Shown one piece after another: positions 5,894-20,480 of a stretch of 64,000 nt of DNA (position 1 is the stretch's first letter; the number at the start of each line of letters is the position of its first letter). The position numbers and the translations under genes are program-made. The notes under the pieces are model-generated. The model was given only the letters and a program-made list of their open reading frames with translations, made no database searches and was not told the origin of the DNA. The DNA is from a phage: assembly GCA_019326865.1 (NCBI GenBank), contig GCA_019326865.1_4101.1. One strand, 5' to 3'.

Positions 5894-5943
5894 AAGTTAC
5901 ATGAAGGGGAGAAATGATTCTCCCTACTAAGAGGAAAGAAAAA

Positions 5944-6156: not shown

Positions 6157-6164
6157 AAAGTACT

Positions 6165-6191: not shown

Positions 6192-6242
6192 GTTTAATAC
6201 AGGAAGGGGAATAGTTCCCCTCCTAACAAAAAGGAAAGTAAC

Positions 6243-6416: not shown

Positions 6417-6562
6417 AAGAATTTTTATTCGAAGTAGTTTTTATTGGTGTAAGTAGTCACCAATTGATTCGCTCAAGTGGTTACAATGTTTGCCAGGCAT
6501 GGAATAACATTAAACAAATGTACCCGAACGCTATCACATATCGCAACCCAAAACAAGTTTAA
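6413..6562 (+). CDS. hypothetical protein (49 aa)
   Basis: hand-translated MKEFLFEVVFIGVSSHQ...; ATGA-coupled to upstream ORF. Confidence 0.35.
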   Translation: MKEFLFEVVFIGVSSHQLIRSSGYNVCQAWNNIKQMYPNAITYRNPKQV

Positions 6563-6570
6563 AAATAATT

Positions 6571-6705
6571 AAAAAAAGGATTGACTTCGGTCAGTCCTTT
6601 TTGCTATTATATATTCATTGAGAGATAGCTCACTAGCCCACAGGGTGCGGGAGTGTATCTATTATATGTTGGTGGGTGTATTATCTAGTACTGAAAACTA
6701 TTTGA
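6571..6705. repeat. intergenic element R copy 2
   Basis: hairpin GGATTGAC-TTCG-GTCAGTCC; TTGACT(6581)-18-TATTAT; conserved core as in copy 1. Confidence 0.75.
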
Positions 6706-6715
6706 TAAAAAGTAC

Positions 6716-6743
6716 TTGCATTGTACTTAGAATCAAGTATAAT
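6716..6743 (+). promoter_or_regulatory. sigma70-like promoter driving an ORF-less structured leader
   Basis: TTGCAT-16nt-TATAAT; followed by about 80 nt with nested inverted repeats and no ORF before the next promoter. Confidence 0.45.
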
Positions 6744-6833
6744 GTTTTACATCAGGACAGGGAACGAAATAAGTAACTTCCCGTTAAGTAGCCCAGGAGT
6801 AAGGCATACGAAAAACTCCCCTGATAAAATAGT

Positions 6834-6862
6834 TTGACAATAGTTTTAAGTACTGATAAAAT
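6834..6862 (+). promoter_or_regulatory. sigma70-like promoter
   Basis: TTGACA-17nt-TAAAAT; cassette homologous to 269-330. Confidence 0.5.
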
Positions 6863-6894
6863 AATCACATCAACTACTGATAAGGAAACATAAA

Positions 6895-7170
6895 ATGCGG
6901 GTTCTTCTGACAGCTAACGAAATCGAGCAAGTACTTACTACTAACCTGGAACAATGGAAACGTGAAGCAGATATCCAGGCGGTTCAATTGTTAAATGAGA
7001 AGTTAACGCCGGATGATTTAAGTAAGATTGTAGATCCTCAATTCTACGAAGATATTCACGACACCGCGTTAAGCGTCGAGGATGTACTAGATAAACACTA
7101 CATTGATACTAATTTACAGGGTTACGGTCGTAAAAATTTTATTACTATTCACGACATTTACAATAATTAA
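6895..7170 (+). CDS. hypothetical protein (91 aa)
   Basis: ORF track; SD AAGGAAAC. Confidence 0.6.
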   Translation: MRVLLTANEIEQVLTTNLEQWKREADIQAVQLLNEKLTPDDLSKIVDPQFYEDIHDTALSVEDVLDKHYIDTNLQGYGRKNFITIHDIYNN

Positions 7171-7173
7171 GTA

Positions 7174-7201
7174 TTGACAAAGTATCTTAGTACTGTATAA
7201 T
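7174..7201 (+). promoter_or_regulatory. sigma70-like promoter with 5' leader hairpin
   Basis: TTGACA-16nt-TATAAT; GAGGGGAATGGTTCCCCTC hairpin; cassette repeated at 7443. Confidence 0.6.
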
Positions 7202-7256
7202 AGTTTACATCAAGTGAGGGGAATGGTTCCCCTCCTAACAAAGAGAGAAATAAAAA

Positions 7257-7439
7257 ATGGCTAAGTGCACTATCTGTAAGAAAGAAATAGTATTAGTTCC
7301 AAGTGCCCGTGAGCGTGCAGCTCGGTTCGGTGGCAAAGCGTCAGACTATACAAAAATGTTTACTACTCATGCAAATTGCCAGGTAGCAAAACGTTCACAA
7401 GAAAGCGTAGAATTAATGCGTAAACTTTCCAAAAAATAA
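7257..7439 (+). CDS. hypothetical Cys-containing protein (60 aa)
   Basis: ORF track; CTIC...H..C possible zinc ligands. Confidence 0.55.
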   Translation: MAKCTICKKEIVLVPSARERAARFGGKASDYTKMFTTHANCQVAKRSQESVELMRKLSKK

Positions 7440-7442
7440 GTA

Positions 7443-7470
7443 TTGACAAAGTATCTTAGTACTGTATAAT
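7443..7470 (+). promoter_or_regulatory. sigma70-like promoter with 5' leader hairpin
   Basis: TTGACA-16nt-TATAAT; near-identical to 7174 cassette. Confidence 0.6.
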
Positions 7471-7525
7471 AGATTACATCAAGTGAGGGGAAACGGTTCC
7501 CCTCCTAACAAAGAGAGAAATAAAA

Positions 7526-7849
7526 ATGACTATGATCCTTGCCCAGAAAGTAGAACTGAAAATTGTAACTTCCTTTGACATTAAAGTTAATCGCTGGACT
7601 GATCGGAACGGTAATACTTACCACTCTTGCTACGTGTCTGCATTGATTGGTGATCGTTGGGAAGACTTGGGACACGAAACCTTTACATACGGTTACGGTA
7701 CGCAAGGCGAATACACTGGTTTGGAGATCATTAAAGAAACCGTTATAGGTTTCAACCCGAAAGAAAAAGTTATTCACCGCATCGAAAAAGAGATTAATAA
7801 AGAAATAACAGTTCGCTACTACGATGTAAAACGTAAGAAAGACATGTAA
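7526..7849 (+). CDS. hypothetical protein (107 aa), paralog of 1165..1509
   Basis: ORF track; shared YGYG and C-terminal DVKRKKD. Confidence 0.65.
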   Translation: MTMILAQKVELKIVTSFDIKVNRWTDRNGNTYHSCYVSALIGDRWEDLGHETFTYGYGTQGEYTGLEIIKETVIGFNPKEKVIHRIEKEINKEITVRYYDVKRKKDM

Positions 7850-7871
7850 TAGAATCCATTTAAAGTACTAT

Positions 7872-7900
7872 TTGACATTACACAGATAGTACTTTATAAT
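7872..7900 (+). promoter_or_regulatory. sigma70-like promoter
   Basis: TTGACA-17nt-TATAAT. Confidence 0.55.
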
Positions 7901-7935
7901 AGACTCTAACTTGTAGTATTAACTTAACTAATAGG

Positions 7936-8340
7936 ATGTATACCATGATTACTAAATTCTACGCTACCCGTGAAGCTGCCCGTATTGTTGCACGCGAGGA
8001 AGGAGCGGCATTTAAAGACATGGGCAAAGATGCACCGAAAGGCCAACGCTGGAGCGTACAGTTCAAAGAAATCTCTGATATTGTGAATTCACCTGAACCA
8101 GTACTGACAGCAGCAGAACAGAAGAAAGCTGATGAACTGGCGGCAATTCTTAACGCTCAAGATGAATTCGTCGAGGGTGCTGATATCCAGGTTGTAGTAA
8201 ATTCGAATGCATGGACTCACGCGGATCATCTGGCTAACCTGAAGCGTCCAAGCGTATTGATTCGCAACCATAAAGAGATCCGACACGACCGCAAGGGCAA
8301 CCGTGTTACTGTATACAGTAAACGCCGCCAGGTTATCTAA
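7936..8340 (+). CDS. hypothetical protein (134 aa)
   Basis: ORF track; alternative start ATG 7945; followed by terminator. Confidence 0.6.
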   Translation: MYTMITKFYATREAARIVAREEGAAFKDMGKDAPKGQRWSVQFKEISDIVNSPEPVLTAAEQKKADELAAILNAQDEFVEGADIQVVVNSNAWTHADHLANLKRPSVLIRNHKEIRHDRKGNRVTVYSKRRQVI

Positions 8341-8362
8341 TACCTAGCAGTACTAACAACAC

Positions 8363-8388
8363 GGCGGGATCTGTTCCCGCCTTTTTTA
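8363..8388 (+). terminator. rho-independent terminator
   Basis: GGCGGGA-TCTGT-TCCCGCC followed by TTTTTT. Confidence 0.7.
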
Positions 8389-8402
8389 CAGGATAAACTA
8401 AA

Positions 8403-8657
8403 ATGATTAAGGTAAAACTATCTAAAGATAATATCTTGCGGGTACACTATAAAGCCCCTCAGAGAATCATCACAAAGGCCGTACAGCTTGCGAATGAGTT
8501 TATTAATGGTAATCTATTACCTAGGAAGTTAAGCAACGGAAAACTGCGTGTAATCGATGTAGACACTAACAACAGAATAGTAATAGAGAATACCGGAAAG
8601 ATAAACCTATATGAACACCAACAATATAATAAGAAAATAAAACTAATTAGTCGTTGA
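8403..8657 (+). CDS. hypothetical protein (84 aa)
   Basis: ORF track. Confidence 0.55.
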   Translation: MIKVKLSKDNILRVHYKAPQRIITKAVQLANEFINGNLLPRKLSNGKLRVIDVDTNNRIVIENTGKINLYEHQQYNKKIKLISR

Positions 8658-8711
8658 CAGTACTCAAATGTTTTAGTACTATATATCTATACCAACACGG
8701 AGAGAAACAAA

Positions 8712-8930
8712 ATGAAATTATCTAAAATCGAAAAGAAAACTATTGACGTAGCTATCCAACATGGTTACACCTTTCGTAATGATTTACATTTTACCAATTT
8801 TCAACAAGGGTATCGTACTATTAAAAAACTAATTGACAAAGGTTTATTAGTTAAAGTAGACAACGGCAACGGCGTTGAATATCAACCAACACAGGACGCA
8901 TTTAATTTTAAGAAATATAATATTATCTAA
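8712..8930 (+). CDS. hypothetical protein (72 aa), possible winged-helix DNA binder
   Basis: ORF track; promoter TTGACA 8654; IKKLIDKGLLVKVDNGNG wing-like segment (weak). Confidence 0.5.
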   Translation: MKLSKIEKKTIDVAIQHGYTFRNDLHFTNFQQGYRTIKKLIDKGLLVKVDNGNGVEYQPTQDAFNFKKYNII

Positions 8931-8987
8931 TTGACAGTACTCAAATGTTTTAGTACTATATCTATACCAACACAGGAAAAAAACAAA

Positions 8988-9572
8988 ATGCGTAATTATA
9001 CTAAATTCATCCGTACACTGTCAGAAATGGAAACCAACAAAGAGATCTTGACAGCTTGTCGGTTAGCTGGTCTGGAGATCATCGGTGCGGGGTCTTCCCG
9101 TATTGTATTCGCTTTAAATGATCGGTTAGTGATTAAGGTCGCGAATTGTGATGCGGGTGTAGAACAAAATGAAACAGAATGTAAAGTATGGAATTTTTTA
9201 GATTATGACCGACCTCAGTTGAAACAGTTCTTTGCTAAAGTACATATGCATTTAAGCGATCCTGATAATATGTTTATTGTTATGGATCGGTTGAGTACTG
9301 CAAGTAAAGGCAGTGTAAAGCACGTTAACGCGTGCAACGAATTAAAGTACAATATTAAACGTAATGCAATCGAACGCCAGCACCGCTTTGCTGATGCACT
9401 ACAACACGTCGATGATACATTATCAACACTAACGATCAGAGATATCAGAAAACAGAATATCGGACAGGATCGAAATGGACTGATTAAAGTACTTGATTAT
9501 GGTTTAACCCGCAATATCTGGAATCAGTACTATAAAAAGCGTGATGTAAAAGCCGTAACTATAACACGATAA
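8988..9572 (+). CDS. compact protein-kinase-like protein (194 aa)
   Basis: start moved from track TTG 8931; Gly-loop IGAGSSRIVF, VIKV lysine, catalytic-loop-like RDIRKQN, DFG-like LDYG. Confidence 0.5.
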   Translation: MRNYTKFIRTLSEMETNKEILTACRLAGLEIIGAGSSRIVFALNDRLVIKVANCDAGVEQNETECKVWNFLDYDRPQLKQFFAKVHMHLSDPDNMFIVMDRLSTASKGSVKHVNACNELKYNIKRNAIERQHRFADALQHVDDTLSTLTIRDIRKQNIGQDRNGLIKVLDYGLTRNIWNQYYKKRDVKAVTITR

Positions 9573-9580
9573 AAAAGATT

Positions 9581-9705
9581 AAAAAAGGGATTGACTCCGG
9601 TCAGTCCCTTTGCTATTATATATTCATTGAGAGATAGCTCACTAGCCCACAGGGTGCGGGAGTGTATCTATTATATAAGTATTGAGTACTGAAAACTATT
9701 TTTAA
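9581..9705. repeat. intergenic element R copy 3
   Basis: hairpin GGGATTGAC-TCCG-GTCAGTCCC; TTGACT(9591)-17-TATTAT; conserved core. Confidence 0.75.
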
Positions 9706-9713
9706 AAAGTACT

Positions 9714-9740
9714 TGCATTGTACTTAGATTCAAGTATAAT
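9714..9740 (+). promoter_or_regulatory. sigma70-like promoter with 5' leader hairpin
   Basis: TTGCAT-15nt-TATAAT; imperfect GGGGGAACGTCCC hairpin; SD AAGGAAT. Confidence 0.55.
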
Positions 9741-9787
9741 GTTTTATATCGAGAGGGGGAACGTCCCTGATAATAAGGAATAAAATC

Positions 9788-10009
9788 ATGACTACAATGA
9801 CTTGCATTTACGCTTCCAATCTTCTGAATGATGCTGTTTTTAATGTTGATTCAGAATATCAATGTTATCGGGATGAAAATAAAAAAGTTTTTGTAGTTGA
9901 TAATAATGGTTTCCATATTGAATTACAATCCGGCTTCACTGGTGTTGATGGTAAATCAGTATGGGGCGTACAGGATGATAAAGGCACATATCATTTTAAA
10001 CGTAATTAA
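9788..10009 (+). CDS. hypothetical protein (73 aa)
   Basis: ORF track; SD AAGGAAT. Confidence 0.6.
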   Translation: MTTMTCIYASNLLNDAVFNVDSEYQCYRDENKKVFVVDNNGFHIELQSGFTGVDGKSVWGVQDDKGTYHFKRN

Positions 10010-10012
10010 GTA

Positions 10013-10040
10013 TTGACAAAGTATCTTAGTACTGTATAAT
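10013..10040 (+). promoter_or_regulatory. sigma70-like promoter with double leader hairpin
   Basis: TTGACA-16nt-TATAAT; same double hairpin as at 3460-3510. Confidence 0.6.
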
Positions 10041-10124
10041 AGTTTACATCAAGGGCAACGGGAAGTTTTAAAAACTTCCCTATAGGGAGAACAGTTCTCC
10101 CCGATACTAAAAGGAAACAAAAAT

Positions 10125-10397
10125 ATGTCTAGCTACTCCGCTACTATGATCATTAAAGATATGAACGGTAATCCTACTGCTGCTGGTGGATCATTTGGAA
10201 ACATTAACTTAGATGGTCGGTTAACCATGCAATCAGCCATCAATGCAGCGAAAGAAGTTTTTAAGAATGAATGCACTGTAAGTAAGCTGGATTATATGGG
10301 ATTCGCTATCGAGAAAACTAATCGTTTTGTGAACTACAAAAATCCACTGATGATTGATACTAACCTGAAAGCTAACGAAGTGGAATACTTATTATGA
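10125..10397 (+). CDS. hypothetical protein (90 aa)
   Basis: ORF track; SD AAAGGAAAC. Confidence 0.6.
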   Translation: MSSYSATMIIKDMNGNPTAAGGSFGNINLDGRLTMQSAINAAKEVFKNECTVSKLDYMGFAIEKTNRFVNYKNPLMIDTNLKANEVEYLL

Positions 10398-10585
10398 CAG
10401 TTGAAGAAGTTAAAAAAGTACTGGCAGTTCTACGCTATCATAACCATTGCAAGGTGAAGAATGATTCTGATTATCTTGATTCATCCCTTGAGGAAGACAC
10501 ATTAAACGCAATAAGCTATATGCAAACATTATTAAAACGTATGACCGAAAAGAATAGACCGGACTATATCGGAAATAAAATTTAA
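10394..10585 (+). CDS. hypothetical protein (63 aa)
   Basis: ORF track; ATGA-coupled. Confidence 0.5.
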   Translation: MTVEEVKKVLAVLRYHNHCKVKNDSDYLDSSLEEDTLNAISYMQTLLKRMTEKNRPDYIGNKI

Positions 10586-10593
10586 AAAGTACT

Positions 10594-10620
10594 TGCATTG
10601 TAGTTAGATTAACGTATAAT
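10594..10620 (+). promoter_or_regulatory. sigma70-like promoter with 5' leader hairpin
   Basis: TTGCAT-15nt-TATAAT; GAGGGGAAATGGTTTCCCCTC hairpin. Confidence 0.55.
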
Positions 10621-10671
10621 GTTTTATATCGAGAGGGGAAATGGTTTCCCCTCAAGTCCAGGAGATACACA

Positions 10672-10935
10672 ATGAACACTATCGAAATCACTATCAATGC
10701 TCACGTATACGACAACGTAGTACTGCAAACTACTATGACCGCTAATGATACCAGTACTTTGCGGAATACTGTTATTAGTGCTGTATGTGCCGCTATCGGT
10801 GATGTCGCCCTGGAAAATGCAAAACACGTAAACGATGGTTTCACTATGTGCAAGCGTGATAACGCAAAACATATCATCGTAGAAGGTTACGGCGGTGTAG
10901 AATATAATGTTTATATGAAAAAAGTACTTGCATAA
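10672..10935 (+). CDS. hypothetical protein (87 aa)
   Basis: ORF track; SD CAGGAGA; 3' end overlaps next promoter. Confidence 0.6.
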   Translation: MNTIEITINAHVYDNVVLQTTMTANDTSTLRNTVISAVCAAIGDVALENAKHVNDGFTMCKRDNAKHIIVEGYGGVEYNVYMKKVLA

Positions 10936-10955
10936 TAACTAAAACAAAGTATAAT
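10928..10955 (+). promoter_or_regulatory. sigma70-like promoter with 5' leader hairpin
   Basis: TTGCAT-16nt-TATAAT; GGGGGAGATATCCTCCCCC hairpin. Confidence 0.55.
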
Positions 10956-11002
10956 GTTTTGCATAGGGGGAGATATCCTCCCCCACTAAAAGGAGTAATA
11001 AA

Positions 11003-11227
11003 ATGGCTAACTTTGATGAACTGATGCGGGAAGTAGCTAACCTGGCAGAAGAGAAGAAATCATTCGATTCTATCTATAACACCTCTTACCGTGATTCAGT
11101 ACTGGCATGTAACCAGGATCAAAAAGATGAACTAATCGCCACCTATTATGAAGCATGGAAGTACTACCGACAATGGGAGAAAGAAGAAAGTGAGTCTACC
11201 ATTGACGGCCTCAATAATCTAATCTAA
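11003..11227 (+). CDS. hypothetical protein (74 aa)
   Basis: ORF track; SD AAAGGAG. Confidence 0.6.
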   Translation: MANFDELMREVANLAEEKKSFDSIYNTSYRDSVLACNQDQKDELIATYYEAWKYYRQWEKEESESTIDGLNNLI

Positions 11228-11245
11228 AGTTTTATTTCAGTACTA

Positions 11246-11274
11246 TTGACATAGATTGATAGTACTGATATGAT
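11246..11274 (+). promoter_or_regulatory. sigma70-like promoter
   Basis: TTGACA-17nt-TATGAT; partial copy of the 790 cassette. Confidence 0.45.
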
Positions 11275-11302
11275 AACTTTACTATCTACAAGGGGAAACA
11301 TC

Positions 11303-11560
11303 ATGGAACAATTCACACAATATCGGGTAAATCCTCAAGCTATGGCATACGTAGAAGACCATAAAACGTTACCAGTACAAACACCAATTAAAGGCCATAT
11401 CTATCGTGCAATGTCATGGAATCCGGCCCAGTATGGCTATAACACCGTAGCCGTGGGCATGTACTGCGGCAATGGTGAATGGTTTGATCCTAACAATCCG
11501 ATTGCACTTGATAGTACTGAAAAAATGAAATGGGCCGACTACATCGAAGATATTTCATAA
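11303..11560 (+). CDS. hypothetical protein (85 aa)
   Basis: start moved from track 11270 (ATG inside -10 region) to ATG after SD AAGGGGAAA. Confidence 0.55.
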   Translation: MEQFTQYRVNPQAMAYVEDHKTLPVQTPIKGHIYRAMSWNPAQYGYNTVAVGMYCGNGEWFDPNNPIALDSTEKMKWADYIEDIS

Positions 11561-11567
11561 AAATTAT

Positions 11568-11595
11568 TTGACAGTACTAACCAGTAATGTATAAT
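11568..11595 (+). promoter_or_regulatory. sigma70-like promoter with 5' leader hairpin
   Basis: TTGACA-16nt-TATAAT; GCGGGGGAATAGTTCTCCCGC hairpin. Confidence 0.55.
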
Positions 11596-11650
11596 GTTTT
11601 ACATAGAGCGGGGGAATAGTTCTCCCGCCAATAGTTTGGAGTAAAACATT

Positions 11651-11851
11651 ATGTCTATCGCTATCGCCCTGGTCGAAGTACTGAAAGAAGCTAAAGCCAA
11701 CCTTATCGATGTACAGATTAAGGAATTGCAAAATGGCTTAATCGGCTGTACTTGTACCGCTGGTGGCCCGTCAGACTATCGGGAATTCGAATCACTTGAA
11801 TCGATGGTCCGTTATCTTACAATCATCGTAGAAGATTGGAGAATCATCTAA
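11651..11851 (+). CDS. hypothetical protein (66 aa)
   Basis: ORF track; SD TTTGGAG. Confidence 0.55.
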   Translation: MSIAIALVEVLKEAKANLIDVQIKELQNGLIGCTCTAGGPSDYREFESLESMVRYLTIIVEDWRII

Positions 11852-11865
11852 CAAAAAAAAAGAAT

Positions 11866-12005
11866 AAAAAGGGATTGACTCCGGTCAGTCCCTTTGCTAT
11901 TATATACGCATAGACAAAAACTAGCCCACAGGGTGCATAGGTGTATCTTAAATATATAGTTAATAACGGTGAGTAACTATCTGCTGGTGGGGTGAAAACT
12001 ATTAA
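11866..12005. repeat. intergenic element R copy 4 (diverged)
   Basis: same hairpin and TTGACT(11875)-17-TATTAT; central part diverged, keeps CTAGCCCACAGGGTGC. Confidence 0.7.
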
Positions 12006-12014
12006 TAAAAAGTA

Positions 12015-12043
12015 TTGACAAAGTATATCAGTACTGCAATAAT
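12015..12043 (+). promoter_or_regulatory. sigma70-like promoter
   Basis: TTGACA-17nt-AATAAT. Confidence 0.45.
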
Positions 12044-12097
12044 GTATCTCGTAGGGCGGCAATGGTGCGACGGTCCACAAAGTTAGGAGATTCACAA

Positions 12098-12430
12098 ATG
12101 AGTACTTCAATCGCTATCGTTAAAGCTTTCATCCGTACCAACGTTTCATCTGTATTCATTGACGGACTGGATCGGGAAGTAGAATACTCAATCATTATCG
12201 CACAAACTGCAAACGGTGCTCGGTACATCCTTAATAATAGTGAAGCAAATCACTACTACTTCACTAAAGCCACTGGCTTTAAACGCATCGATGCTGATGT
12301 AGTATACGCTAAGATGAATAAGCTGGTAGACAAGATTAACGCGAAAGGTACTATCGATTTACAGTACTGGACCGAAACCGATCCAGAATATGGATCTCAC
12401 CGCTACCTGAATCCAGGTATTAAAATGTAA
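12098..12430 (+). CDS. hypothetical protein (110 aa)
   Basis: start moved from track 12062 to ATG after SD AGGAGA. Confidence 0.6.
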   Translation: MSTSIAIVKAFIRTNVSSVFIDGLDREVEYSIIIAQTANGARYILNNSEANHYYFTKATGFKRIDADVVYAKMNKLVDKINAKGTIDLQYWTETDPEYGSHRYLNPGIKM

Positions 12431-12437
12431 AAAGTAC

Positions 12438-12465
12438 TTGCATAGTACTTAGATTTAAGTATAAT
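12438..12465 (+). promoter_or_regulatory. sigma70-like promoter with 5' leader hairpin
   Basis: TTGCAT-16nt-TATAAT; GAGGGGGAAATGGTTCTCCCTCC hairpin. Confidence 0.55.
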
Positions 12466-12519
12466 GTTTTTCATAGAGAGGGGGAAATGGTTCTCCCTCC
12501 TAAATTAAGGAGTTTTATC

Positions 12520-12921
12520 ATGACCTTCTCAATCACTTCCTTCGCTGACGTTTTAGTACTGGCTCGGACTTTCGGCAAAGCTGGCCTTGAGCACGCTGTA
12601 AGTAATGGTTATATGCACCCGGAATATTGCCGCATTATCGGTAGCTGTAAACGTTGGGCCGTGTCCCGTAATATTGAGATTGAAAACTTCAATGATGGTA
12701 ACAACGAATATACAGTTGATGCAGTATTCGAATCCGTTGATCTCGGCGGTATCTATAACACTAACCTGAATGATGTGCGTATTGTTCGCACGGGGTTCGG
12801 TGCTTATGATGTATCTATCCGTGAAGCGATGGACAAGGGATACATTAGCAAGGATCAGTTAGCTTACATTATGCAGCAGACTAAAGAGCGTAATGAAGCA
12901 CGCACTATCTTAGGTCTGTAA
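12520..12921 (+). CDS. hypothetical protein (133 aa)
   Basis: start moved from track 12487 (ATG in hairpin loop) to ATG after SD AAGGAG. Confidence 0.6.
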   Translation: MTFSITSFADVLVLARTFGKAGLEHAVSNGYMHPEYCRIIGSCKRWAVSRNIEIENFNDGNNEYTVDAVFESVDLGGIYNTNLNDVRIVRTGFGAYDVSIREAMDKGYISKDQLAYIMQQTKERNEARTILGL

Positions 12922-12989
12922 GCATTACACATCACTAAACATCATAGGCCGCTCTCTAGCGGCCTTAACTATATCAGGAGTACATACAC

Positions 12990-13199
12990 ATGATCTATAC
13001 AGTATACAGTGTTCTAGGCACTATTGCAGGTGTACACGATAATGTCGATGATACTATGATTACAGTACTGCAACAGGTTCCACTAAAGCCTAAGACAGTT
13101 AAGAAGATGACCGCACGACTAACCAGGGCGACGGCTGGCGTGGAAGTATGGCAGGACTACGGGGATACACAGGTAATCGTAAGCGTAACGAGGGATTAA
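12990..13199 (+). CDS. hypothetical protein (69 aa)
   Basis: ORF track; SD CAGGAG; preceded by hairpin AGGCCGCT-CTCT-AGCGGCCT. Confidence 0.55.
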   Translation: MIYTVYSVLGTIAGVHDNVDDTMITVLQQVPLKPKTVKKMTARLTRATAGVEVWQDYGDTQVIVSVTRD

Positions 13200-13418
13200 T
13201 ACGTAAAATGATTTAGTACTGATTCAGAAAAAAGTCAAGGCGTTTTTAAAATTATGCGTTAAAAAAATGCATAGGTAATCCCTTGACTTTTTTGAAATAA
13301 AAGGGATTGGACTATGGCAAAATGCGTAGGGGGGCTAAAGTGCGGGTAACTTAGCGGCTTCGATAAAGGGGTATTACGAATAAAATGTTATTGACTTTTT
13401 ATATAAATCGTATAAAAT

Positions 13419-13646
13419 ATGATTGATAATAATTTTAAGGGAGTCCCTGTGCGTATTTTAACTCAAGCAGAACACCACGAAAGACTTATCAATAACATGG
13501 CTATGATAATGTATAAGTCCCATGACCGTGGTATTGCCTATAAGCGTGAATTAGTACTGGAACTATTCATTGGAACTAACTTTCAGGAAAGGTATGTCAA
13601 CGATTGGATTTGGTATTTAATTGAAGATATAACGAGTAAACTATGA
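13419..13646 (+). CDS. family A paralog (LGTNYQ motif), hypothetical
   Basis: famA motif IGTNFQERYV; start may be GTG 13446 after SD AGGGAG. Confidence 0.6.
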   Translation: MIDNNFKGVPVRILTQAEHHERLINNMAMIMYKSHDRGIAYKRELVLELFIGTNFQERYVNDWIWYLIEDITSKL

Positions 13647-13837
13647 TCATTTTAAATAAAGAAGAATATCAAGAACTGTTACGTAAAAACTTTGTAAAGA
13701 TTTATAATACAGACACACACGTAGAACGAATGGAGTTATACCTTTTGATTACATTGGGAACTAACTATCAGGAAAGATGGGTGATTCAATATATGGATAC
13801 ATTGAAAAATAAAATATTGTCCACGAGGAAACAATGA
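13643..13837 (+). CDS. family A paralog, hypothetical
   Basis: famA LGTNYQERWV; ATGA-coupled. Confidence 0.6.
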   Translation: MIILNKEEYQELLRKNFVKIYNTDTHVERMELYLLITLGTNYQERWVIQYMDTLKNKILSTRKQ

Positions 13838-14043
13838 AAACTATAACACGAACCCAATCATTCGGACTTATCTTGAAATACATGGACTTAATGGTGGATA
13901 TCAGCAAAGACCTGCCTAAAACTGCAATTGAAGTTGCAAGAGCAGAGATCCGCATGTTGGCTGTACTGAACACAAACCATCAGGAAGAGTATGTTGACGA
14001 TTGGATTCGATTTTTAATAGAAGATATTAAGAGTAAACTATGA
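13834..14043 (+). CDS. family A paralog, hypothetical
   Basis: famA LNTNHQEEYV; ATGA-coupled. Confidence 0.6.
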   Translation: MKTITRTQSFGLILKYMDLMVDISKDLPKTAIEVARAEIRMLAVLNTNHQEEYVDDWIRFLIEDIKSKL

Positions 14044-14252
14044 TTATATTAACACCTGAAGAATATAAGAAACGTTTTAATTCTGTCCAGACTGAAATAT
14101 TACTTATATACCTTTCAAATGCAGATCTTAACTTATCAAGGGTAATGGAGAAGGATTTACTTATGGGTGCATTTTTGGATACAGACTTTCAGGAGTATTA
14201 TGTAGGGGAATACTTTATTGCACTTCAGAACCACATTAAGAGTAAACTATGA
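14040..14252 (+). CDS. family A paralog, hypothetical
   Basis: famA LDTDFQEYYV; ATGA-coupled. Confidence 0.6.
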   Translation: MIILTPEEYKKRFNSVQTEILLIYLSNADLNLSRVMEKDLLMGAFLDTDFQEYYVGEYFIALQNHIKSKL

Positions 14253-14464
14253 TTATTCTAGAAAAATCATATCAATATACTGAACGCATCGCTGCCAGAC
14301 AACTTGAAATCCTCATAATATACGAAGAGACTTCTGATTTAAACTTAGCCGAGGTATTGGAAAATGAAATACTTTTGGGTGCATTCTTGGGAACAGACTA
14401 TCAGGAGTATTATGAGGAAAAGTATTTGTCATCTCTTGAGAAATACGTCAGGAGCAAACTATGA
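14249..14464 (+). CDS. family A paralog, hypothetical
   Basis: famA LGTDYQEYYE; ATGA-coupled. Confidence 0.6.
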   Translation: MIILEKSYQYTERIAARQLEILIIYEETSDLNLAEVLENEILLGAFLGTDYQEYYEEKYLSSLEKYVRSKL

Positions 14465-14688
14465 AACATTTAAGTAATATAGAGAAGAATAAAATTATCA
14501 TTGCTGTAATAAACAAATATTTTACACTTCCACAAAAAGAATGTTTATCTATAAGGGAACACAGGATAAACACCACCGAGATTCGCATGTTGGCTGTACT
14601 GGGGACTAACTTCCAAGAAGGCTATGTTCATGAGCACATCGTTGCACTCACTAATTACATAATGGACAAATGCAATGAACATCATTAA
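14461..14688 (+). CDS. family A paralog, hypothetical
   Basis: famA LGTNFQEGYV. Confidence 0.6.
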   Translation: MKHLSNIEKNKIIIAVINKYFTLPQKECLSIREHRINTTEIRMLAVLGTNFQEGYVHEHIVALTNYIMDKCNEHH

Positions 14689-14899
14689 TAACTTTGAATA
14701 CGAGGCCCGTGTTAAGAGTGCCAGAAAAAAAGAGAACACCATTTACTTCACTATGATGTACTTACAATGGACTGAAATTGAAGAAAAGGTTGCTGAAGTA
14801 TGGATGTTGGAATTCATGGGGACGCAGTATCAGAATAGGTTTGCGGGTGAGTATATCAATGTTCTTATGAAACAAATAGAAAGGAAGGAAAAGAACTAA
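14675..14899 (+). CDS. family A paralog, hypothetical
   Basis: famA MGTQYQNRFA. Confidence 0.55.
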   Translation: MNIINNFEYEARVKSARKKENTIYFTMMYLQWTEIEEKVAEVWMLEFMGTQYQNRFAGEYINVLMKQIERKEKN

Positions 14900-14988
14900 T
14901 GGAGGGATGCTGTACTTTATTGGAACTTTTATATATTCATGAACACATAGTTGCCCTCACAAATCTAATAAAGGATAAATGTAAATGA
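14899..14988 (+). pseudogene. truncated family A remnant (29 codons)
   Basis: encodes MEGCCTLLELLYIHEHIVALTNLIKDKCK, matching only the C-terminal end of 14461..14688. Confidence 0.45.
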
Positions 14989-15242
14989 AACACTTGACTG
15001 ATGATGAACATGAAACTATAATTCGTAAACTAACCCCCATCACAAGGATAGTCTACGGTGATCCCAGCCTCACATGGAACCAAATGCGAGCTAAAGTTAA
15101 TGAGCTATGGTTGCTGTACTTTATGGGGACTCAATATCAAGATAAGTTTTGCACAGAATATATCGAACAATTAACGAATGTTATACAGGATAAACTAAAT
15201 GAACGAATTGTGGAAAAATATGAAAACTTTATCAAGCATTGA
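14985..15242 (+). CDS. family A paralog, hypothetical
   Basis: famA MGTQYQDKFC; N-terminus MKHLTDDEH shared with 17780. Confidence 0.6.
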   Translation: MKHLTDDEHETIIRKLTPITRIVYGDPSLTWNQMRAKVNELWLLYFMGTQYQDKFCTEYIEQLTNVIQDKLNERIVEKYENFIKH

Positions 15243-15471
15243 GTATCAGACTGCCCTCTTCTCTCTTCTAAACACCCTCCGCACGAACAATAAACTTTAT
15301 AATTCACGTGAAGCTGATATTGTCAACGCTGATGTATATCTTAATAAATTTATAGGGACTAACTATCAAGAACTGTTTGTTTTACGATATATCTCTGCAC
15401 TAAGAAACGAAATATCAGATAAAACCCGCCAAGCCAGAAGAGAATGGAAGAGACAATGCAACAAAGACTAA
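15199..15471 (+). CDS. family A paralog, hypothetical
   Basis: famA IGTNYQELFV; start may be ATG 15220. Confidence 0.55.
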   Translation: MNELWKNMKTLSSIEYQTALFSLLNTLRTNNKLYNSREADIVNADVYLNKFIGTNYQELFVLRYISALRNEISDKTRQARREWKRQCNKD

Positions 15472-15707
15472 ATCACAAAATGTATTGTAAACTATTACAG
15501 AATCTAGGACAAAAACACTATGATACAGTATCTGAAATATTACCCTATGATATCATGCGTTTAATTCATAGTGAGGCAGAGATGCTTGTACTGATGACCG
15601 GTACTGATAAAACAGCAATCACCAGATCGATAGAGCAATATATTGATGCACACTGTCAATGTATTAGAACTGAGATATGGAGGCGAGTAAATGAAAGTAC
15701 TGAATGA
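15444..15707 (+). CDS. family A-like divergent paralog, hypothetical
   Basis: position in array; degenerate motif MTGTDKTAI. Confidence 0.5.
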   Translation: MEETMQQRLNHKMYCKLLQNLGQKHYDTVSEILPYDIMRLIHSEAEMLVLMTGTDKTAITRSIEQYIDAHCQCIRTEIWRRVNESTE

Positions 15708-15906
15708 GTATCAGTATCATTGGAGGTTACAAACTATAAGAGGGAAAGTTGTTAGTATTTCTTTAGACAAGTCTATTGCACAAGAGGACAAATGTGTTAT
15801 AATAGCTGAAATGAAGTTGGGTGTATTTGTAGGAACAAACTATCAAAACATCTACACTGACGTATTATTAAGTGCCTTACGCAACAAGGTGTTATCCAGA
15901 GAATGA
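15691..15906 (+). CDS. family A paralog, hypothetical
   Basis: famA VGTNYQNIYT. Confidence 0.6.
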   Translation: MKVLNEYQYHWRLQTIRGKVVSISLDKSIAQEDKCVIIAEMKLGVFVGTNYQNIYTDVLLSALRNKVLSRE

Positions 15907-16121
15907 GAAAATTAATAGGTTACGAATATGTTAAGCTTCTGAAAACCTGTAGTATTAGCAGGGTAAAGATTCAATCTGATAAGAGTATTCCTGTTGAACT
16001 AAAGTACGCAATGATGGCTGAACTTTATGTAGGTGCACTATTGGGGACAAACTATCAACAAATGTATGTAGACCTATGGGTTGACGCTCTACTGAAAGAG
16101 GTCCAAAGTAAATGCAAATGA
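15903..16121 (+). CDS. family A paralog, hypothetical
   Basis: famA LGTNYQQMYV; ATGA-coupled. Confidence 0.6.
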   Translation: MRKLIGYEYVKLLKTCSISRVKIQSDKSIPVELKYAMMAELYVGALLGTNYQQMYVDLWVDALLKEVQSKCK

Positions 16122-16333
16122 TTCATTTATCTTACTATGAATATCAAAAACGTTTAAATGCATCAAGGGATATAAGGATTAAAATCTACAATAACAAAAG
16201 ATTGAAATCTGAAGCCAAAAAAATCAAAATGATAGAAGCTGAATTATGCAACTTCCTTGGGACGAACTATCAGGATGATAAGGTAACAAACTATCTTAGA
16301 GAACTAATGATTAGTATCAAGAGTAAATGTTAG
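16112..16333 (+). CDS. family A paralog, hypothetical
   Basis: famA LGTNYQDDKV. Confidence 0.6.
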   Translation: MQMIHLSYYEYQKRLNASRDIRIKIYNNKRLKSEAKKIKMIEAELCNFLGTNYQDDKVTNYLRELMISIKSKC

Positions 16334-16337
16334 GCAG

Positions 16338-16595
16338 ATGTACATGAAAATGATTAAATTATCTCAAGCAAAATATAAAGAACGCCTGGAAAAAATTACA
16401 CCTAGACTTAATGAAATCCATCACGGAGAAGTCATTAAACACGGAAATAAGATGATTATGAAACTTGAGTTAAAGGTGGGTGCATTCATAGGAACAAACT
16501 ATCAGGAGTATTATGTAGATGAATACATAATCGCACTTAAGAGATACATTGGAAGAAAACTATATCTACAAACTAAAGAATTGTATTGCAAATAA
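16338..16595 (+). CDS. family A paralog, hypothetical
   Basis: famA IGTNYQEYYV. Confidence 0.6.
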   Translation: MYMKMIKLSQAKYKERLEKITPRLNEIHHGEVIKHGNKMIMKLELKVGAFIGTNYQEYYVDEYIIALKRYIGRKLYLQTKELYCK

Positions 16596-16876
16596 ATGCA
16601 AGGATAATGAATATGAAAATGATCAATTTAAGTAAAGATGAATATACCGAGCGTATGACAAAAATTACGCACAAACGTAATACAATCTATCACAACCCAG
16701 AAATTCAACACAGTAAGAAAATGATTATGATGCGTGAGTTAAAGATGGGTGTATTCTTGGGAACAAACTATCAAGATACAGAAGTAAATCGCTTAATCGC
16801 GGAGTTACTACTGGAAATCAGAGGTAAGCTGTACTTTCATCAAATGACCCAACCACTGAGGTGTACTAAGAAATGA
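16586..16876 (+). CDS. family A paralog, hypothetical
   Basis: famA LGTNYQDTEV. Confidence 0.6.
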   Translation: MQINARIMNMKMINLSKDEYTERMTKITHKRNTIYHNPEIQHSKKMIMMRELKMGVFLGTNYQDTEVNRLIAELLLEIRGKLYFHQMTQPLRCTKK

Positions 16877-17088
16877 TCAACATCACATTGCAAGAAAGAT
16901 TCATCCGAATCAACTATGCAATTACCAAATTAGATGCTACTATAGGATTCCAAAGTCTACCGTTCCAAACAAGAATGATATTAGAGTGCGAAGCTAAATT
17001 GGGTGTACTGTTAGGAACGCAACACCAACAACGATATGTGGAAATCTGGATTGATCTTTTAACCCAAAATGTACATGAGAAAATGTAA
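16873..17088 (+). CDS. family A paralog, hypothetical
   Basis: famA LGTQHQQRYV; ATGA-coupled. Confidence 0.6.
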   Translation: MINITLQERFIRINYAITKLDATIGFQSLPFQTRMILECEAKLGVLLGTQHQQRYVEIWIDLLTQNVHEKM

Positions 17089-17325
17089 ATGAAAAATGAA
17101 ATGATATACTTAACGAATGAAGAGTTTCAAGAGAAGATGTTAAAAATCTATGATAATACTCTTGAGTACGTTCCAAATCAATCAATATATGAAGTGTCTG
17201 CGAATGTATTATTTCAGAAGCTACCATACGTTCTTGGAACGGATAAACAAGAATTTATGGTCAAAAATATGATTGAACATCTTATGATGAGTATTAAGGA
17301 AAAAGTGAATGCAAAAGAAAAATGA
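17089..17325 (+). CDS. family A paralog, hypothetical
   Basis: famA LGTDKQEFMV. Confidence 0.6.
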   Translation: MKNEMIYLTNEEFQEKMLKIYDNTLEYVPNQSIYEVSANVLFQKLPYVLGTDKQEFMVKNMIEHLMMSIKEKVNAKEK

Positions 17326-17572
17326 AATGATATACTTAACACCTGCTGAGTTAACAGAAAGACTAGTTAAATCCAGAAGATATACAAATCAACTTCCTCA
17401 CAACCCAAATCAAACCCCAGCGGAAAGGAGTGCAGAAGTTTTATTCCAATCACTACCATACCTTCTTGGAACTAATAGACAAGAGTATCATATCGAACGT
17501 ATAATTAAATATCTTAAAATTACTATTAAGGAAAAAGTAAATGCTCAAGAATTTAAAAATCCTAACAGTTAA
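17309..17572 (+). CDS. family A paralog, hypothetical
   Basis: famA LGTNRQEYHI; N-terminus near-identical to 17089. Confidence 0.6.
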   Translation: MQKKNEMIYLTPAELTERLVKSRRYTNQLPHNPNQTPAERSAEVLFQSLPYLLGTNRQEYHIERIIKYLKITIKEKVNAQEFKNPNS

Positions 17573-17783
17573 TGAATATCATAAGATTGTAATGAAAACT
17601 AATAGTGCAATTTCTAAAAAATCAAACCCAAAGTACATACTGGAACACACATTTGAAGAACGTCAATTAGCTTTAGTTGAAGCAAAACTTCTTGCACTCT
17701 TAGGAACAAACTATCAGGAAGAATACATCAGAAAACTAATATACCTTTTAACTAAACACATCAGGAAAAGAAAAAAAGCATGA
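17541..17783 (+). CDS. family A paralog, hypothetical
   Basis: famA LGTNYQEEYI. Confidence 0.6.
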   Translation: MLKNLKILTVNEYHKIVMKTNSAISKKSNPKYILEHTFEERQLALVEAKLLALLGTNYQEEYIRKLIYLLTKHIRKRKKA

Positions 17784-18010
17784 AGCACTTGACAGATGAT
17801 GAACATGGGCTTATAGTAATGGATGTAATCAACATCGAATACAAAAAGTTGATACGCTATCGTTGTTATGAAGATAAGCAACTAGTTCTAGCAGAACAGA
17901 AGTTGTTTCGACTCTTAAACACAAACTTCCAAGCACAATACGAAGAATCGTATATGTACCTTTTGGCGAGGAAAGCAAAAAGAGATTATGAAAATTTTAA
18001 GCAAAGGTGA
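17780..18010 (+). CDS. family A paralog, hypothetical
   Basis: famA LNTNFQAQYE; ATGA-coupled. Confidence 0.6.
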   Translation: MKHLTDDEHGLIVMDVINIEYKKLIRYRCYEDKQLVLAEQKLFRLLNTNFQAQYEESYMYLLARKAKRDYENFKQR

Positions 18011-18209
18011 TTCAGTAATATTACTTATAGAGAGTTCAAATAAATTCTTAAACATAACACTGTCTGATATAGATGAAGATGATAAAGAAGTACTGAGAGC
18101 AGATTTAAGAGTACTGTTACATCTCGGAACAAACCTACAAGAAGAATATGTAGAGTACTACATTGATGAACTTAAAGAATCAGTACTGAGAAGATGCAAA
18201 TGCGAATGA
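17988..18209 (+). CDS. family A paralog, hypothetical
   Basis: famA LGTNLQEEYV. Confidence 0.6.
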   Translation: MKILSKGDSVILLIESSNKFLNITLSDIDEDDKEVLRADLRVLLHLGTNLQEEYVEYYIDELKESVLRRCKCE

Positions 18210-18421
18210 TTACCGACGAAGAATACCTAACAATTATAAATGGATTGTTTTTGAAGTTGTTTGTTATTAACACATCAGATATACCAGATATGGATAAAAT
18301 TATTAAGAGAAATGAAATCTATGTTCTAGCTACCCTGGGAACTAACTATCAAGAATGCAATATTAATGATTATATTAATACACTTAAAGGAGCGATTGAA
18401 CTAAAATGCCAAAACCACTAG
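18194..18421 (+). CDS. family A paralog, hypothetical
   Basis: famA LGTNYQECNI. Confidence 0.6.
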   Translation: MQMRMITDEEYLTIINGLFLKLFVINTSDIPDMDKIIKRNEIYVLATLGTNYQECNINDYINTLKGAIELKCQNH

Positions 18422-18621
18422 GAACAGCAGAATACATTGAACTCATGGGATTACACTTCTCATCCTTTCAGAAACTTATGCGAGAATCAAAGAATGATTT
18501 AGAATATACCATCAGAGGTTCAGATTTAAGAATGCTTCTCACCCTAGACACAGATTCCCAAGAGAGATTTGTCAATGAGCATATTAGAGCACTTTTAATG
18601 GAAATTAAAAGTAAACTATGA
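18406..18621 (+). CDS. family A paralog, hypothetical
   Basis: famA LDTDSQERFV. Confidence 0.6.
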   Translation: MPKPLGTAEYIELMGLHFSSFQKLMRESKNDLEYTIRGSDLRMLLTLDTDSQERFVNEHIRALLMEIKSKL

Positions 18622-18833
18622 AGGTAATATCAAACCAAGAGTACTTGGCACTATTCAGGAAGAATAATCACAAATATATGGCACTTGATTCAAGAACTGA
18701 TATAGGGGAACTTGAAAAAAATCTTTTGCGTTCAGAGATGATAGTACTGACACTCTTAGGAACACAACATCAAGAGAGAACTGTTGATTCATATATTGAG
18801 ATTCTTAAGAAGCTTATACAGGAAAAACTATGA
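18618..18833 (+). CDS. family A paralog, hypothetical
   Basis: famA LGTQHQERTV; ATGA-coupled. Confidence 0.6.
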   Translation: MKVISNQEYLALFRKNNHKYMALDSRTDIGELEKNLLRSEMIVLTLLGTQHQERTVDSYIEILKKLIQEKL

Positions 18834-19060
18834 GAATCATAACACAAACAGACATATTTAAGTTAGCAAGGGAACATACATCTGAAATTGATGCTATAGT
18901 ATCAAAAAGTTACAATGACCCTTATACACAAGATGTGCACTACAATGAATTATGGGTGTATATACTTTTAGGTACAAATTATCAAGAGCAAGCAGTACAG
19001 AAGTATTTGGCAGCTTTAAGTACTGCTACTGCTAATAGTATAGGTATTAAAAAATGCTAG
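18830..19060 (+). CDS. family A paralog, hypothetical
   Basis: famA LGTNYQEQAV; ATGA-coupled. Confidence 0.6.
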   Translation: MRIITQTDIFKLAREHTSEIDAIVSKSYNDPYTQDVHYNELWVYILLGTNYQEQAVQKYLAALSTATANSIGIKKC

Positions 19061-19290
19061 TACTGACAGAACTAGAAATGTATCATAGATTTAATAAGTA
19101 CTATCATTTACTTAAGCCTATACAGAGGATTAAATGTCCATTTGAAGAGAAACAGGTATTAATTTATGAGCATAAGTTATTTGTATCATTAGGTACGAAT
19201 GAACAAGAGTATTATTTGAAGTTGTACTTAATTACTTTAATTGAATTGATTAATCACAAAACACAGAAAGCTAAGAAATCTAAAAAATGA
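19054..19290 (+). CDS. family A paralog, hypothetical
   Basis: famA LGTNEQEYYL. Confidence 0.6.
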   Translation: MLVLTELEMYHRFNKYYHLLKPIQRIKCPFEEKQVLIYEHKLFVSLGTNEQEYYLKLYLITLIELINHKTQKAKKSKK

Positions 19291-19625
19291 AAACTAATAT
19301 TCAACTCAAGGTATACATATCTTATGAATCTATATACATCAAATGCAGTCTATGTAAAGATGTAATGGATTATAAAGGTAAGCCATTCACAATTACTTAC
19401 AGTCTAACAGGAGGCTTTTATATATCTTTTGTTGATTACGAAAATAAAATATACAAGCACATTGATATTAAAGATTTAAGTACCTTGTCAGATGAGGAAT
19501 ACTTTCAAGAATCATTAGTATGGGATTTAGAGTTTCCTATGACATTAGTACACAAAATGATAGTACTAATGAAAGAAACTAAACCTGAGCCGAGTGGTTA
19601 TGAAGAATTCATTATTGAGTATTAA
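19287..19625 (+). CDS. family B paralog (acidic-FQxS motif), hypothetical
   Basis: famB SDEEYFQESLVWD; sits inside family A array. Confidence 0.6.
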   Translation: MKTNIQLKVYISYESIYIKCSLCKDVMDYKGKPFTITYSLTGGFYISFVDYENKIYKHIDIKDLSTLSDEEYFQESLVWDLEFPMTLVHKMIVLMKETKPEPSGYEEFIIEY

Positions 19626-19637
19626 GAGTACTGATAT

Positions 19638-19853
19638 ATGAAAAGATTATCATACAAAGATTACAGTAAACTTATCAGTACTTTACAACCAGAAATTAGA
19701 AGAATTAATTATCTTCCTATATCTAACGAAGAACGTGTAGTACTGAAAAATGAGTTAATATTAAAACGCACAGTAGGTACTAACTATCAAGATAATAGTG
19801 TTTGCGATTTAATTAGAGGGTTAATGATCACAATAAAGGCCAAGTGCTATTGA
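19638..19853 (+). CDS. family A paralog, hypothetical
   Basis: famA VGTNYQDNSV. Confidence 0.6.
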   Translation: MKRLSYKDYSKLISTLQPEIRRINYLPISNEERVVLKNELILKRTVGTNYQDNSVCDLIRGLMITIKAKCY

Positions 19854-19859
19854 CAGTAC

Positions 19860-19888
19860 TTGACGGAGCTTTTCATTACTGATATAGT
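19860..19888 (+). promoter_or_regulatory. sigma70-like promoter
   Basis: TTGACG-17nt-TATAGT upstream of 19918. Confidence 0.45.
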
Positions 19889-19917
19889 ATACTAACGTTA
19901 ATCATAGGGTAGAAATT

Positions 19918-20163
19918 ATGTTAAAATTTTTAAATTTCCTTATCGTCTTGTGTATTGTTCTTGGGATTGCACCGTTTGTACTGGTGTATATGGATTCAGA
20001 TGAAATGCAAAAGATGAATTGCACAAAGACGGGACAGAGTAGAGAAGAGACGATTCTTATGCCTGTTACTGTTATTGTTAATAATATGCCCATTACAAAC
20101 ATGGTCCCTACCCTAACGACAACGTACCAGTACTCTTGTACAGACGGGGAGAGGTGGAGATGA
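19918..20163 (+). CDS. hypothetical membrane protein (81 aa)
   Basis: ORF track; N-terminal hydrophobic helix FLNFLIVLCIVLGIAPFVLVY. Confidence 0.55.
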   Translation: MLKFLNFLIVLCIVLGIAPFVLVYMDSDEMQKMNCTKTGQSREETILMPVTVIVNNMPITNMVPTLTTTYQYSCTDGERWR

Positions 20164-20480
20164 AATTTAATATAGCAAAAACATCGAATGTATGTATATT
20201 TGGTTATGCAGAAGAGTTAGGTGATATTGACATTCTTTTGTACAAAAAGGATGGTGTTATGCATTTCAAGTACCAGGATGAAGAGGCAGACAATTATCTT
20301 TTGCCTAATTTAGTACAAATGCAGGAAGAGGAATTATTCCAGTACAGCTTAGTATATGACATTGATATTTGCACGATGCCAGTACTAATTAATATTCAAA
20401 AAGTGATGCTCGATGTGTTTGATAGGCTAATACAAGGCACACAAGGAAGAACCATATATGTCAATGTACAAGACAATTAA
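20136..20480 (+). CDS. family B paralog, hypothetical
   Basis: famB QEEELFQYSLVYD. Confidence 0.6.
   Translation: MYRRGEVEMKFNIAKTSNVCIFGYAEELGDIDILLYKKDGVMHFKYQDEEADNYLLPNLVQMQEEELFQYSLVYDIDICTMPVLINIQKVMLDVFDRLIQGTQGRTIYVNVQDN

Follow-up and report, generated by a model that had tools for sequence, protein, structure and literature searches.

A conserved intergenic junction at the probable right boundary of the direct terminal repeat in an Asteriusvirus jumbo phage

Genes and signals at the junction

The window, by which we mean the whole 64,000-nt stretch of phage DNA that was analysed, belongs to an Asteriusvirus (121Q/PBECO4-like jumbo coliphage): its positions 12400-14400 are 88-93% identical to about 40 Asteriusvirus genomes, the group of 121Q, PBECO4, G17 and slurp01, which are jumbo coliphages of roughly 350 kb. 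The junction considered here lies between a small gene at 12990-13199 and the first gene of a paralog array. The original prediction described this junction as an ORF-free stretch of 220 bp; it does lack ORFs, with none of at least 20 aa contained on either strand, but its true extent is 249 nt, from 13200 to 13448, the array gene beginning with a GTG at 13449. In three relatives, E9.1 (L009 274-401), SD-15_S21 (L016 635-835) and Turkey5 (L014 598-702), small CDS or misc features are annotated across the junction; these look like over-annotation, because the window has no ORF of at least 20 aa there. The product of 12990-13199 matches phrog_17833 (E = 4.6e-34), and in seven Asteriusvirus records no CDS stands between its homologue and the record end. 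Searches of Pfam and PHROGs with the genes flanking the junction returned no function. The features of the region are as follows, with a slash marking the predicted cut:

12990-13199, + strand: predicted last gene inside the direct terminal repeat (69 aa, from the ORF list; function not assigned)
13223-13296, + strand: long hairpin, read as a putative bidirectional intrinsic terminator (fold, 13-nt arms, A-run before, T-run at 13288-13293)
13303-13316, no strand assigned: block A, GGGATTGGACTATG, 36 nt before the predicted terminus; unique in the window
13322-13334, no strand assigned: block B, ATGCGTAGGGGGG, conserved in Asteriusvirus only
13344-13363, no strand assigned: block C, GGGTAACT/TAGCGGCTTCGA, spanning the predicted physical genome end
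13391-13418, + strand: sigma-70 promoter, TTGACT-16-TAAAAT (score 10/12), predicted first promoter outside the terminal repeat
13437-13443 and 13449-13646, + strand: ribosome-binding site AAGGGAG and first array gene, starting at GTG (65 aa, phrog_4148 paralog family)

A long inverted repeat with a spacer of about 40 nt had been predicted in the junction, and it is exact: the 13-nt arms, AAAAAAGTCAAGG (13228-13240) and CCTTGACTTTTTT (13281-13293), are 100% complementary and are separated by 40 nt. Dinucleotide shuffling of the 219-nt junction yields a perfect 13-nt inverted repeat in 0.04% of cases (P about 4e-4), and the whole 64-kb window contains four, with 0.25 expected. As + strand RNA, positions 13222-13300 fold into one long hairpin (-23.6 kcal/mol, z = -5.65); the fold of the - strand reaches -17.5 kcal/mol (z = -3.9). 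The hairpin resembles an intrinsic terminator in that it starts 24 nt past the stop codon of the upstream gene, on the same strand, and has a GUCAAGG/CCUUGAC stem leading into six U residues at the end of the right arm (T-run at 13288-13293). It is atypical in having a structured loop of 40 nt, and a simple terminator scan gave no call for this reason. The internal palindrome that had been proposed, ATGCGT-N7-ATGCAT, is present at 13254-13272 but is imperfect as DNA (5/6); what the RNA fold contains instead is a nested apical stem of 9 bp (13252-13260 with 13266-13274), G-U pairs included. Judging from the modelled fold, the inverted repeat most likely serves as a terminator for the early genes upstream of it. 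A candidate minus-strand promoter in its left arm (TTGACT-17-TAAATC) was ruled out, having a poor -10 and no leftward gene to serve.

The promoter-like sequence was originally given as a non-canonical TTGACT-14-TATAAA, which is the wrong register. TTGACT at 13391-13396 pairs with TAAAAT at 13413-13418 across a canonical 16-nt spacer. The -35 hexamer is identical to that of the window in the divergent relatives Turkey5 and JNE01 (100%) and nearly so in the close clade (98%); for the -10 hexamer the corresponding values are 100% and 75%, and the variants across relatives (TAAAAT, TATTAT and TAATAT) are all consensus-like. PBECO4 and BF17 retain the promoter although the gene that follows it differs. 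From its position, we predict that it drives the paralog array, the operon with which the unique region opens. The start codon of the first array gene is GTG 13449, not ATG 13419; relatives annotate a 198-nt CDS from the equivalent ATG. In two Salmonella phages of 310-326 kb, SD-15_S21 (L016) and SD-1_S14 (L017), the equivalent of 13366-13445, i.e. the array promoter, is absent and the terminus block abuts the first array gene, which may be a true deletion or an assembly effect at a step in coverage.

Correspondence with mapped genome ends of relatives

The record of vB_Ec-M-J annotates "Direct Terminal Repeats" at 1..21525, a feature that ends in the gap homologous to our junction, 152 nt past the last gene. 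We compared the ends of every record that holds both copies of the repeat: seven two-copy records (vB_Ec-M-J, fEgEco12, G17, E9.1, CRJP21, WPEC3 and WPEC5), some of which may owe their orientation to earlier records that were copied and not to end mapping of their own, end at one base, ...GGGTAACCT, which lies 152 nt past the last gene and is equivalent to window 13351/13352. The terminal sequence reads ...GGGCGGGTAACCT in vB_Ec-M-J, fEgEco12, E9.1 and CRJP21, and the same terminal base is found in reverse orientation in G17, WPEC3 and WPEC5. In the two-copy relatives, the second copy of the repeat stops at this site and the sequence beyond it is single, as expected at the inner edge of a direct terminal repeat (DTR).

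Published mapping agrees with this position, and in two relatives it does so to the nucleotide. The repeat of fEgEco12 was measured at 20,993 bp by PhageTerm, with restriction digests agreeing (PMC13070987), and the site maps to base 20993 of the fEgEco12 record. The repeat of Sharanji was measured at 20,668 bp, likewise by PhageTerm (PMC11895373), and its left and right sites lie exactly this far apart (36445-15778+1 = 20,668). For G17, about 20 kb was found at double coverage (PMC6563267). Not all records are equally precise: the repeat of UE-S1 has been flagged as mis-assigned (PMC13070987), and the record of ELP-22 (OR699282.2, L010) stops 24 nt past the last repeat gene, where the two-copy records listed above stop at 152 nt, so that its stated ends are probably not physical termini.

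An alignment with a single gap places the cut in the window at ...GGGTAACT/TAGCGGC, making 13351 the last repeat base and 13352 the first unique base. The window has a 1-nt deletion exactly here (AAC-TTAGCG, compared with AACCTTAGCG), and the other gap placement offered by MAFFT makes 13352 the last repeat base; the position thus carries an uncertainty of plus or minus 1 nt. It is by homology to the relatives that we assign the terminus of the window's own phage to 13351/13352. A scan of IMG/VR for GATTGGACTATG-N20-50-CCTTAG returned only 121Q itself and chance matches within coding sequence. A metagenome scan found three contigs that bear the junction, all with identical junctions; their ends lie 0.45-0.75 kb from the site and are uninformative on the cut.

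We consider it very probable that the junction is the right boundary of a DTR of about 21 kb, consisting of a terminator, a conserved cut-site module of about 60 nt and the first promoter of the unique region. This reading draws on homology to termini that were determined experimentally in relatives, on the pattern of conservation, on the stability of the hairpin and on the match and conservation of the promoter. The position of the genome end in close relatives is already published. The original prediction had not suspected a right end here. Its suggestion of a recombination site holds loosely, in that the edge of a DTR is where virion ends form and where the homology for circularising or concatemerising stops. 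Similarly, its suggestion of a regulatory switch for the array holds in the plain sense that a terminator-like hairpin closes the early genes and a conserved sigma-70 promoter opens the array.

We propose that the hairpin with its T-run (13223-13296) would end transcription by host RNA polymerase of the last individually promoted early gene borne by the repeat, and that the non-coding module GGGATTGGACTATG ... ATGCGTAGGGGGG ... GGGTAACT/TAGCGGCTTCGA (13303-13363, about 60 nt) would be the cis site for a packaging or end-forming nuclease. The right genome end would be cut after window 13351, and the sigma-70 promoter at 13391-13418, about 39 nt beyond the cut, would start the operon of the paralog array.

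Conserved blocks around the predicted cut and alternative readings

To describe conservation we aligned 13 Asteriusvirus junctions and expressed identity relative to the window, with Turkey5 and JNE01 as the most divergent members. Block A is 100% identical in Turkey5/JNE01 and 99-100% identical in the close clade, and the sequence of block C up to the cut, GGGTAAC(C)T, is 100% identical in both. Block B is less conserved (92% in the close clade, 73% in Turkey5/JNE01) and is absent from fENko-Kae01; it holds the G-rich block that had been noted from the sequence, a G-run at 13329-13334. Linker sequence falls to 0-43% identity in Turkey5/JNE01 (86-100% in the close clade). The invariant parts of the junction are hence GATTGGACTATG and GGGTAAC(C)T/TAGCG, neither of which the original prediction had singled out. 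By contrast, the inverted repeat appears from these comparisons to be the least conserved part of the junction. Its arms are 96-99% identical to the window in the close clade and 46-50% in Turkey5/JNE01, its loop 94% and 57%, respectively. Turkey5 and JNE01 have unrelated sequence in place of the hairpin, and the replacement in JNE01 is unfolded (z = 0.29); in fENko-Kae01 the inverted repeat is weak and not stably folded. Turkey5 also has an 80-nt tandem duplication (L014 381-560) that takes in the hairpin region and, upstream of it, the 3' end of the last repeat gene.

The arrangement extends beyond the genus. Klebsiella phage fENko-Kae01 has an ANI of about 29% to fEgEco12 (PMC13070987). Its PhageTerm-annotated repeat, 1..19736, ends ...GTCATGCCT/TAGCCACC (GCCT/TAGCC), with GATTGGACTATG about 35-45 nt upstream of the repeat end and TTGACA-17-TATACT 28 nt downstream of it. 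Since the neighbouring protein, the product of its last repeat gene, is only 36% identical to that of 12990-13199, the conservation of non-coding sequence is selective. A protein-guided search for the last repeat gene recovered two extra distant loci, contigs L043 and L044, which keep TGGACTATG ... CTTAGC ... and then a promoter (TTGACA-17-TATACT) in the same relative place. The layout shared by fENko-Kae01 and these contigs indicates that the order of last repeat gene, conserved block, CCT/TAGC cut and first unique promoter predates the genus, as far as can be judged from sequence. We suggest that blocks A and C are the protein-binding and cleavage determinants, with GGGTAACCTTAGCG among the cis-site sequences, and that block A is a candidate binding site of the end-forming (terminase) machinery.

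One alternative is that the junction is only an ordinary spacer between a terminator and a promoter, that the boundary falls here as cuts must avoid genes, and that the blocks serve transcription, for example by binding a regulator. The T-run hairpin and the conserved promoter do exist, and AAAGGGATTGGACT resembles AAAGGGATTGACT, the upstream/-35 part of the repeat-borne promoters at 9584 and 11868, all of which this explanation would accommodate. However, TTGGAC in block A has no -10 partner at 16-18 nt, which rules out a promoter there; the peak of conservation coincides with the mapped cut, GGGTAAC(C)T being invariant there; conservation of the cut survives loss of the promoter in the Salmonella SD-x phages, which keep blocks A to C, as well as loss of the hairpin in JNE01 and Turkey5; and the CCT/TAGC context of the cut recurs in another genus. 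We therefore regard the spacer explanation as unlikely.

Two further alternatives, a replication origin or structured non-coding RNA gene on the one hand and an injection stop of the kind proposed for phage T5 on the other, are both highly improbable, the origin or RNA gene slightly the more so. A replication site was among the original suggestions, and the junction is indeed non-coding, with AT-rich patches (GC 0.27 at 13200-13299), and it folds strongly at the local level (whole junction, z = -3.2). Nonetheless, there is no DnaA box (TTWTNCACA) between 12 and 15 kb, no iteron in the junction and no inflection of GC skew, so the suggestion of a replication site finds no support. As to a structured RNA, an Rfam search of the junction found no family at the gathering score (the best sub-threshold score was 24 bits against a cut-off of 80), positions 13294-13392, outside the hairpin, fold no better than shuffles (z = 0.01), and the conserved blocks do not pair with each other. 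In an injection stop of the T5 kind, the early-gene repeat would enter the cell first, transfer would pause at the boundary and the remaining DNA would be taken up once early proteins had been synthesised. The stop signal proposed for T5 is an untranslated stretch, with abundant repeats and palindromes, that lies across the end of the left terminal repeat; this region spans 1.2 kb and has conserved paired DnaA boxes and many direct repeats (bioRxiv 10.1101/866236). The position of our junction is analogous, and the repeat is packed with host-type promoters. Paired DnaA boxes are lacking between 12 and 15 kb, however, and the junction, at 249 nt, has a single inverted repeat, which the family as a whole does not conserve, and lacks repeat arrays; published accounts of fEgEco12, G17, Sharanji and CBB report no two-step transfer. 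The reading of the junction as the right boundary of the DTR is the one we retain below.

The two ends of the repeat, its early genes and known systems

When each boundary is read inward, from the flank into the repeat, the two look alike, with ...CACTA/AG on the left and, on the bottom strand, ...CGCTA/AG on the right:

fEgEco12: left, ...CCCACTA/AGTAGGCAG; right, bottom strand, ...GTCGCTA/AGGTTACCC
fENko-Kae01: left, ...CCGCTA/TATC; right, bottom strand, ...TGGCTA/AGGC

These matching sequences point to one short site 5' of each repeat strand, in inverted orientation. The two sites also vary together. Three phages, vB_Ec-M-J, BF17 and ELP-22, have an extra T at the right site (AACCT/TTAGCG), and exactly the same three, in three different flank backgrounds, have an extra A at the left site (CACTAA/AGTAGG). 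Neither extra base is found in fEgEco12, by sequence, or in 13-14 others, by right-site sequence or alignment length, and no phage is discordant; this covariation rests on the three phages, with many of the others placed by alignment lengths and with phylogeny ignored.

A tentative and rather doubtful extension of the DTR reading would account for this pattern. Directly 5' of the repeat on each strand there would be a 5'-RCTA^AG site (caret marking the nick), with CTAA^AG at both boundaries in vB_Ec-M-J, BF17 and ELP-22 and CTA^AG in the others. One nuclease would nick opposite strands, on the 5' side of each repeat strand at the inverted CTA^AG, the 21-kb repeat would then be copied by strand displacement, and the enzyme and its sites would co-evolve. 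Watson's 1972 model likewise duplicates a repeat by strand-displacement synthesis. Alternatively, linked inheritance may account for the covariation, and the core motif comprises only 5 nt. A search of the left terminus found neither block A nor block C, so that, apart from the 5-nt core, the two ends show no evident common recognition module; the 8-10-mers common to both junctions are all of the AGTACTGAA type, a genome-wide motif, such that none is terminus-specific. An inverted CTA^AG motif that covaries between repeat boundaries appears to be undescribed. The left genome end of vB_Ec-M-J (L005 1380-1550, L004 60-100) begins with a short hairpin, GGCAGAggaagTCTGCC, and has repeated AGTAATCA units to either side; a hairpin, TATCTTCTctgtataAGAAGATA, likewise stands at the start of the left end in fENko-Kae01.

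The part of the repeat that lies in the window is rich in promoters. On the + strand, 17 promoters match at least 11/12 positions of the consensus within 1-13351 (13.35 kb), versus 10 in the next 50.6 kb. This roughly sixfold higher density of consensus-grade promoters suggests, at the level of sequence, that the repeat is an immediate-early region read by the host polymerase. All matches (9/9) to an extended early promoter, TTGACA-N9-AGTACTG-TATAAT, are inside the repeat. An early region has been proposed for the related phage CBB (PMC5259590), and the organisation of the repeat here fits that proposal.

Two recurring sequences were observed alongside these promoters. The hexamer AGTACT occurs 202 times in the window (1-64000; 16.9 +/- 3.9 expected), for example at 3437, 7189, 10028 and 13215. 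Its density is about 5.8 per kb in the repeat part, drops to about 0.4 per kb across the paralog array (13.4-18 kb) and is about 2.7 per kb in the sequence after that. The strongest early promoters have the hexamer in their spacer, another recurring motif, AAAAAGTACTTGCA, contains it, and in relatives it is clustered immediately outside the left terminus. The sequence AAAGGGATTGACTCCGGTCAGTCCCTTT is present as two identical 28-nt copies, at 9584-9611 and 11868-11895; the scan scored it in two ways, as a terminator-like hairpin and as the part of a TTGACT-17-TATTAT promoter that comprises the -35 and the spacer, and its first 13 nt resemble block A save for one inserted base.

The junction is a landmark, since the genome would physically end here on the right, and the early genes borne by the repeat would give way here to the unique region. 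Such a landmark fixes orientation and annotation, and many Asteriusvirus records are arbitrarily permuted or have a mis-assigned repeat. The CBB terminase is T4-like (PMC5259590). How a terminase of this kind makes exact ends and how a 21-kb repeat is duplicated is a poorly understood step, for which GATTGGACTATG-N33-36-CCT/TAGC offers a short candidate cis element for study. The same motif could predict termini in unfinished genomes of Rak2-like jumbo phages.

Among known systems, the closest are the DTR boundaries of Asteriusvirus and Rak2-like phages themselves (fEgEco12, Sharanji, vB_Ec-M-J, G17, CBB and fENko-Kae01), which share the homologous locus, fixed ends and a repeat of about 20-22 kb. 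The publications consulted on these phages give only the lengths and coordinates of the repeat, and the conserved blocks, the CCT/TAGC context and the left-right motif are undescribed there; the sequence anatomy of the right boundary, i.e. the conserved cut-site module, thus appears to be new to published accounts. In kind, the junction is ordinary, with one modestly interesting detail; it is a well-delimited fresh example of a type of feature that is already known.

Phages with fixed ends of the T7/T3 type duplicate their repeat during packaging, by processing of concatemer junctions. The window's phage group resembles them in having exact, non-permuted ends with a direct repeat and differs in the length of that repeat, which is about 100 times greater here, in its terminase, which is T4-like in the related CBB, and in its cis motifs, which are unrelated. 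Exact, non-permuted ends with a direct repeat imply site-specific cutting at both boundaries together with copying of the repeat (PMC3896407). T5 provides a similarity at the end of its left terminal repeat (Repeat Region 3), where an untranslated region that bears inverted repeats straddles the inner end of a long repeat of pre-early genes; our region is five times shorter and has neither DnaA boxes nor arrays of direct repeats. Lastly, the terminal redundancy of Bacillus phage SPO1 is described as carrying a host-takeover module of small early genes with strong host-type promoters and terminators (Stewart et al., 1998, via PMC6873191; PMC3896407). SPO1 and the window have in common a long terminal repeat full of promoter-rich early genes, here with 17 promoters of consensus grade over its final 13.35 kb; the host, the phage family and the genes are unrelated, so that the likeness is one of organisation only.
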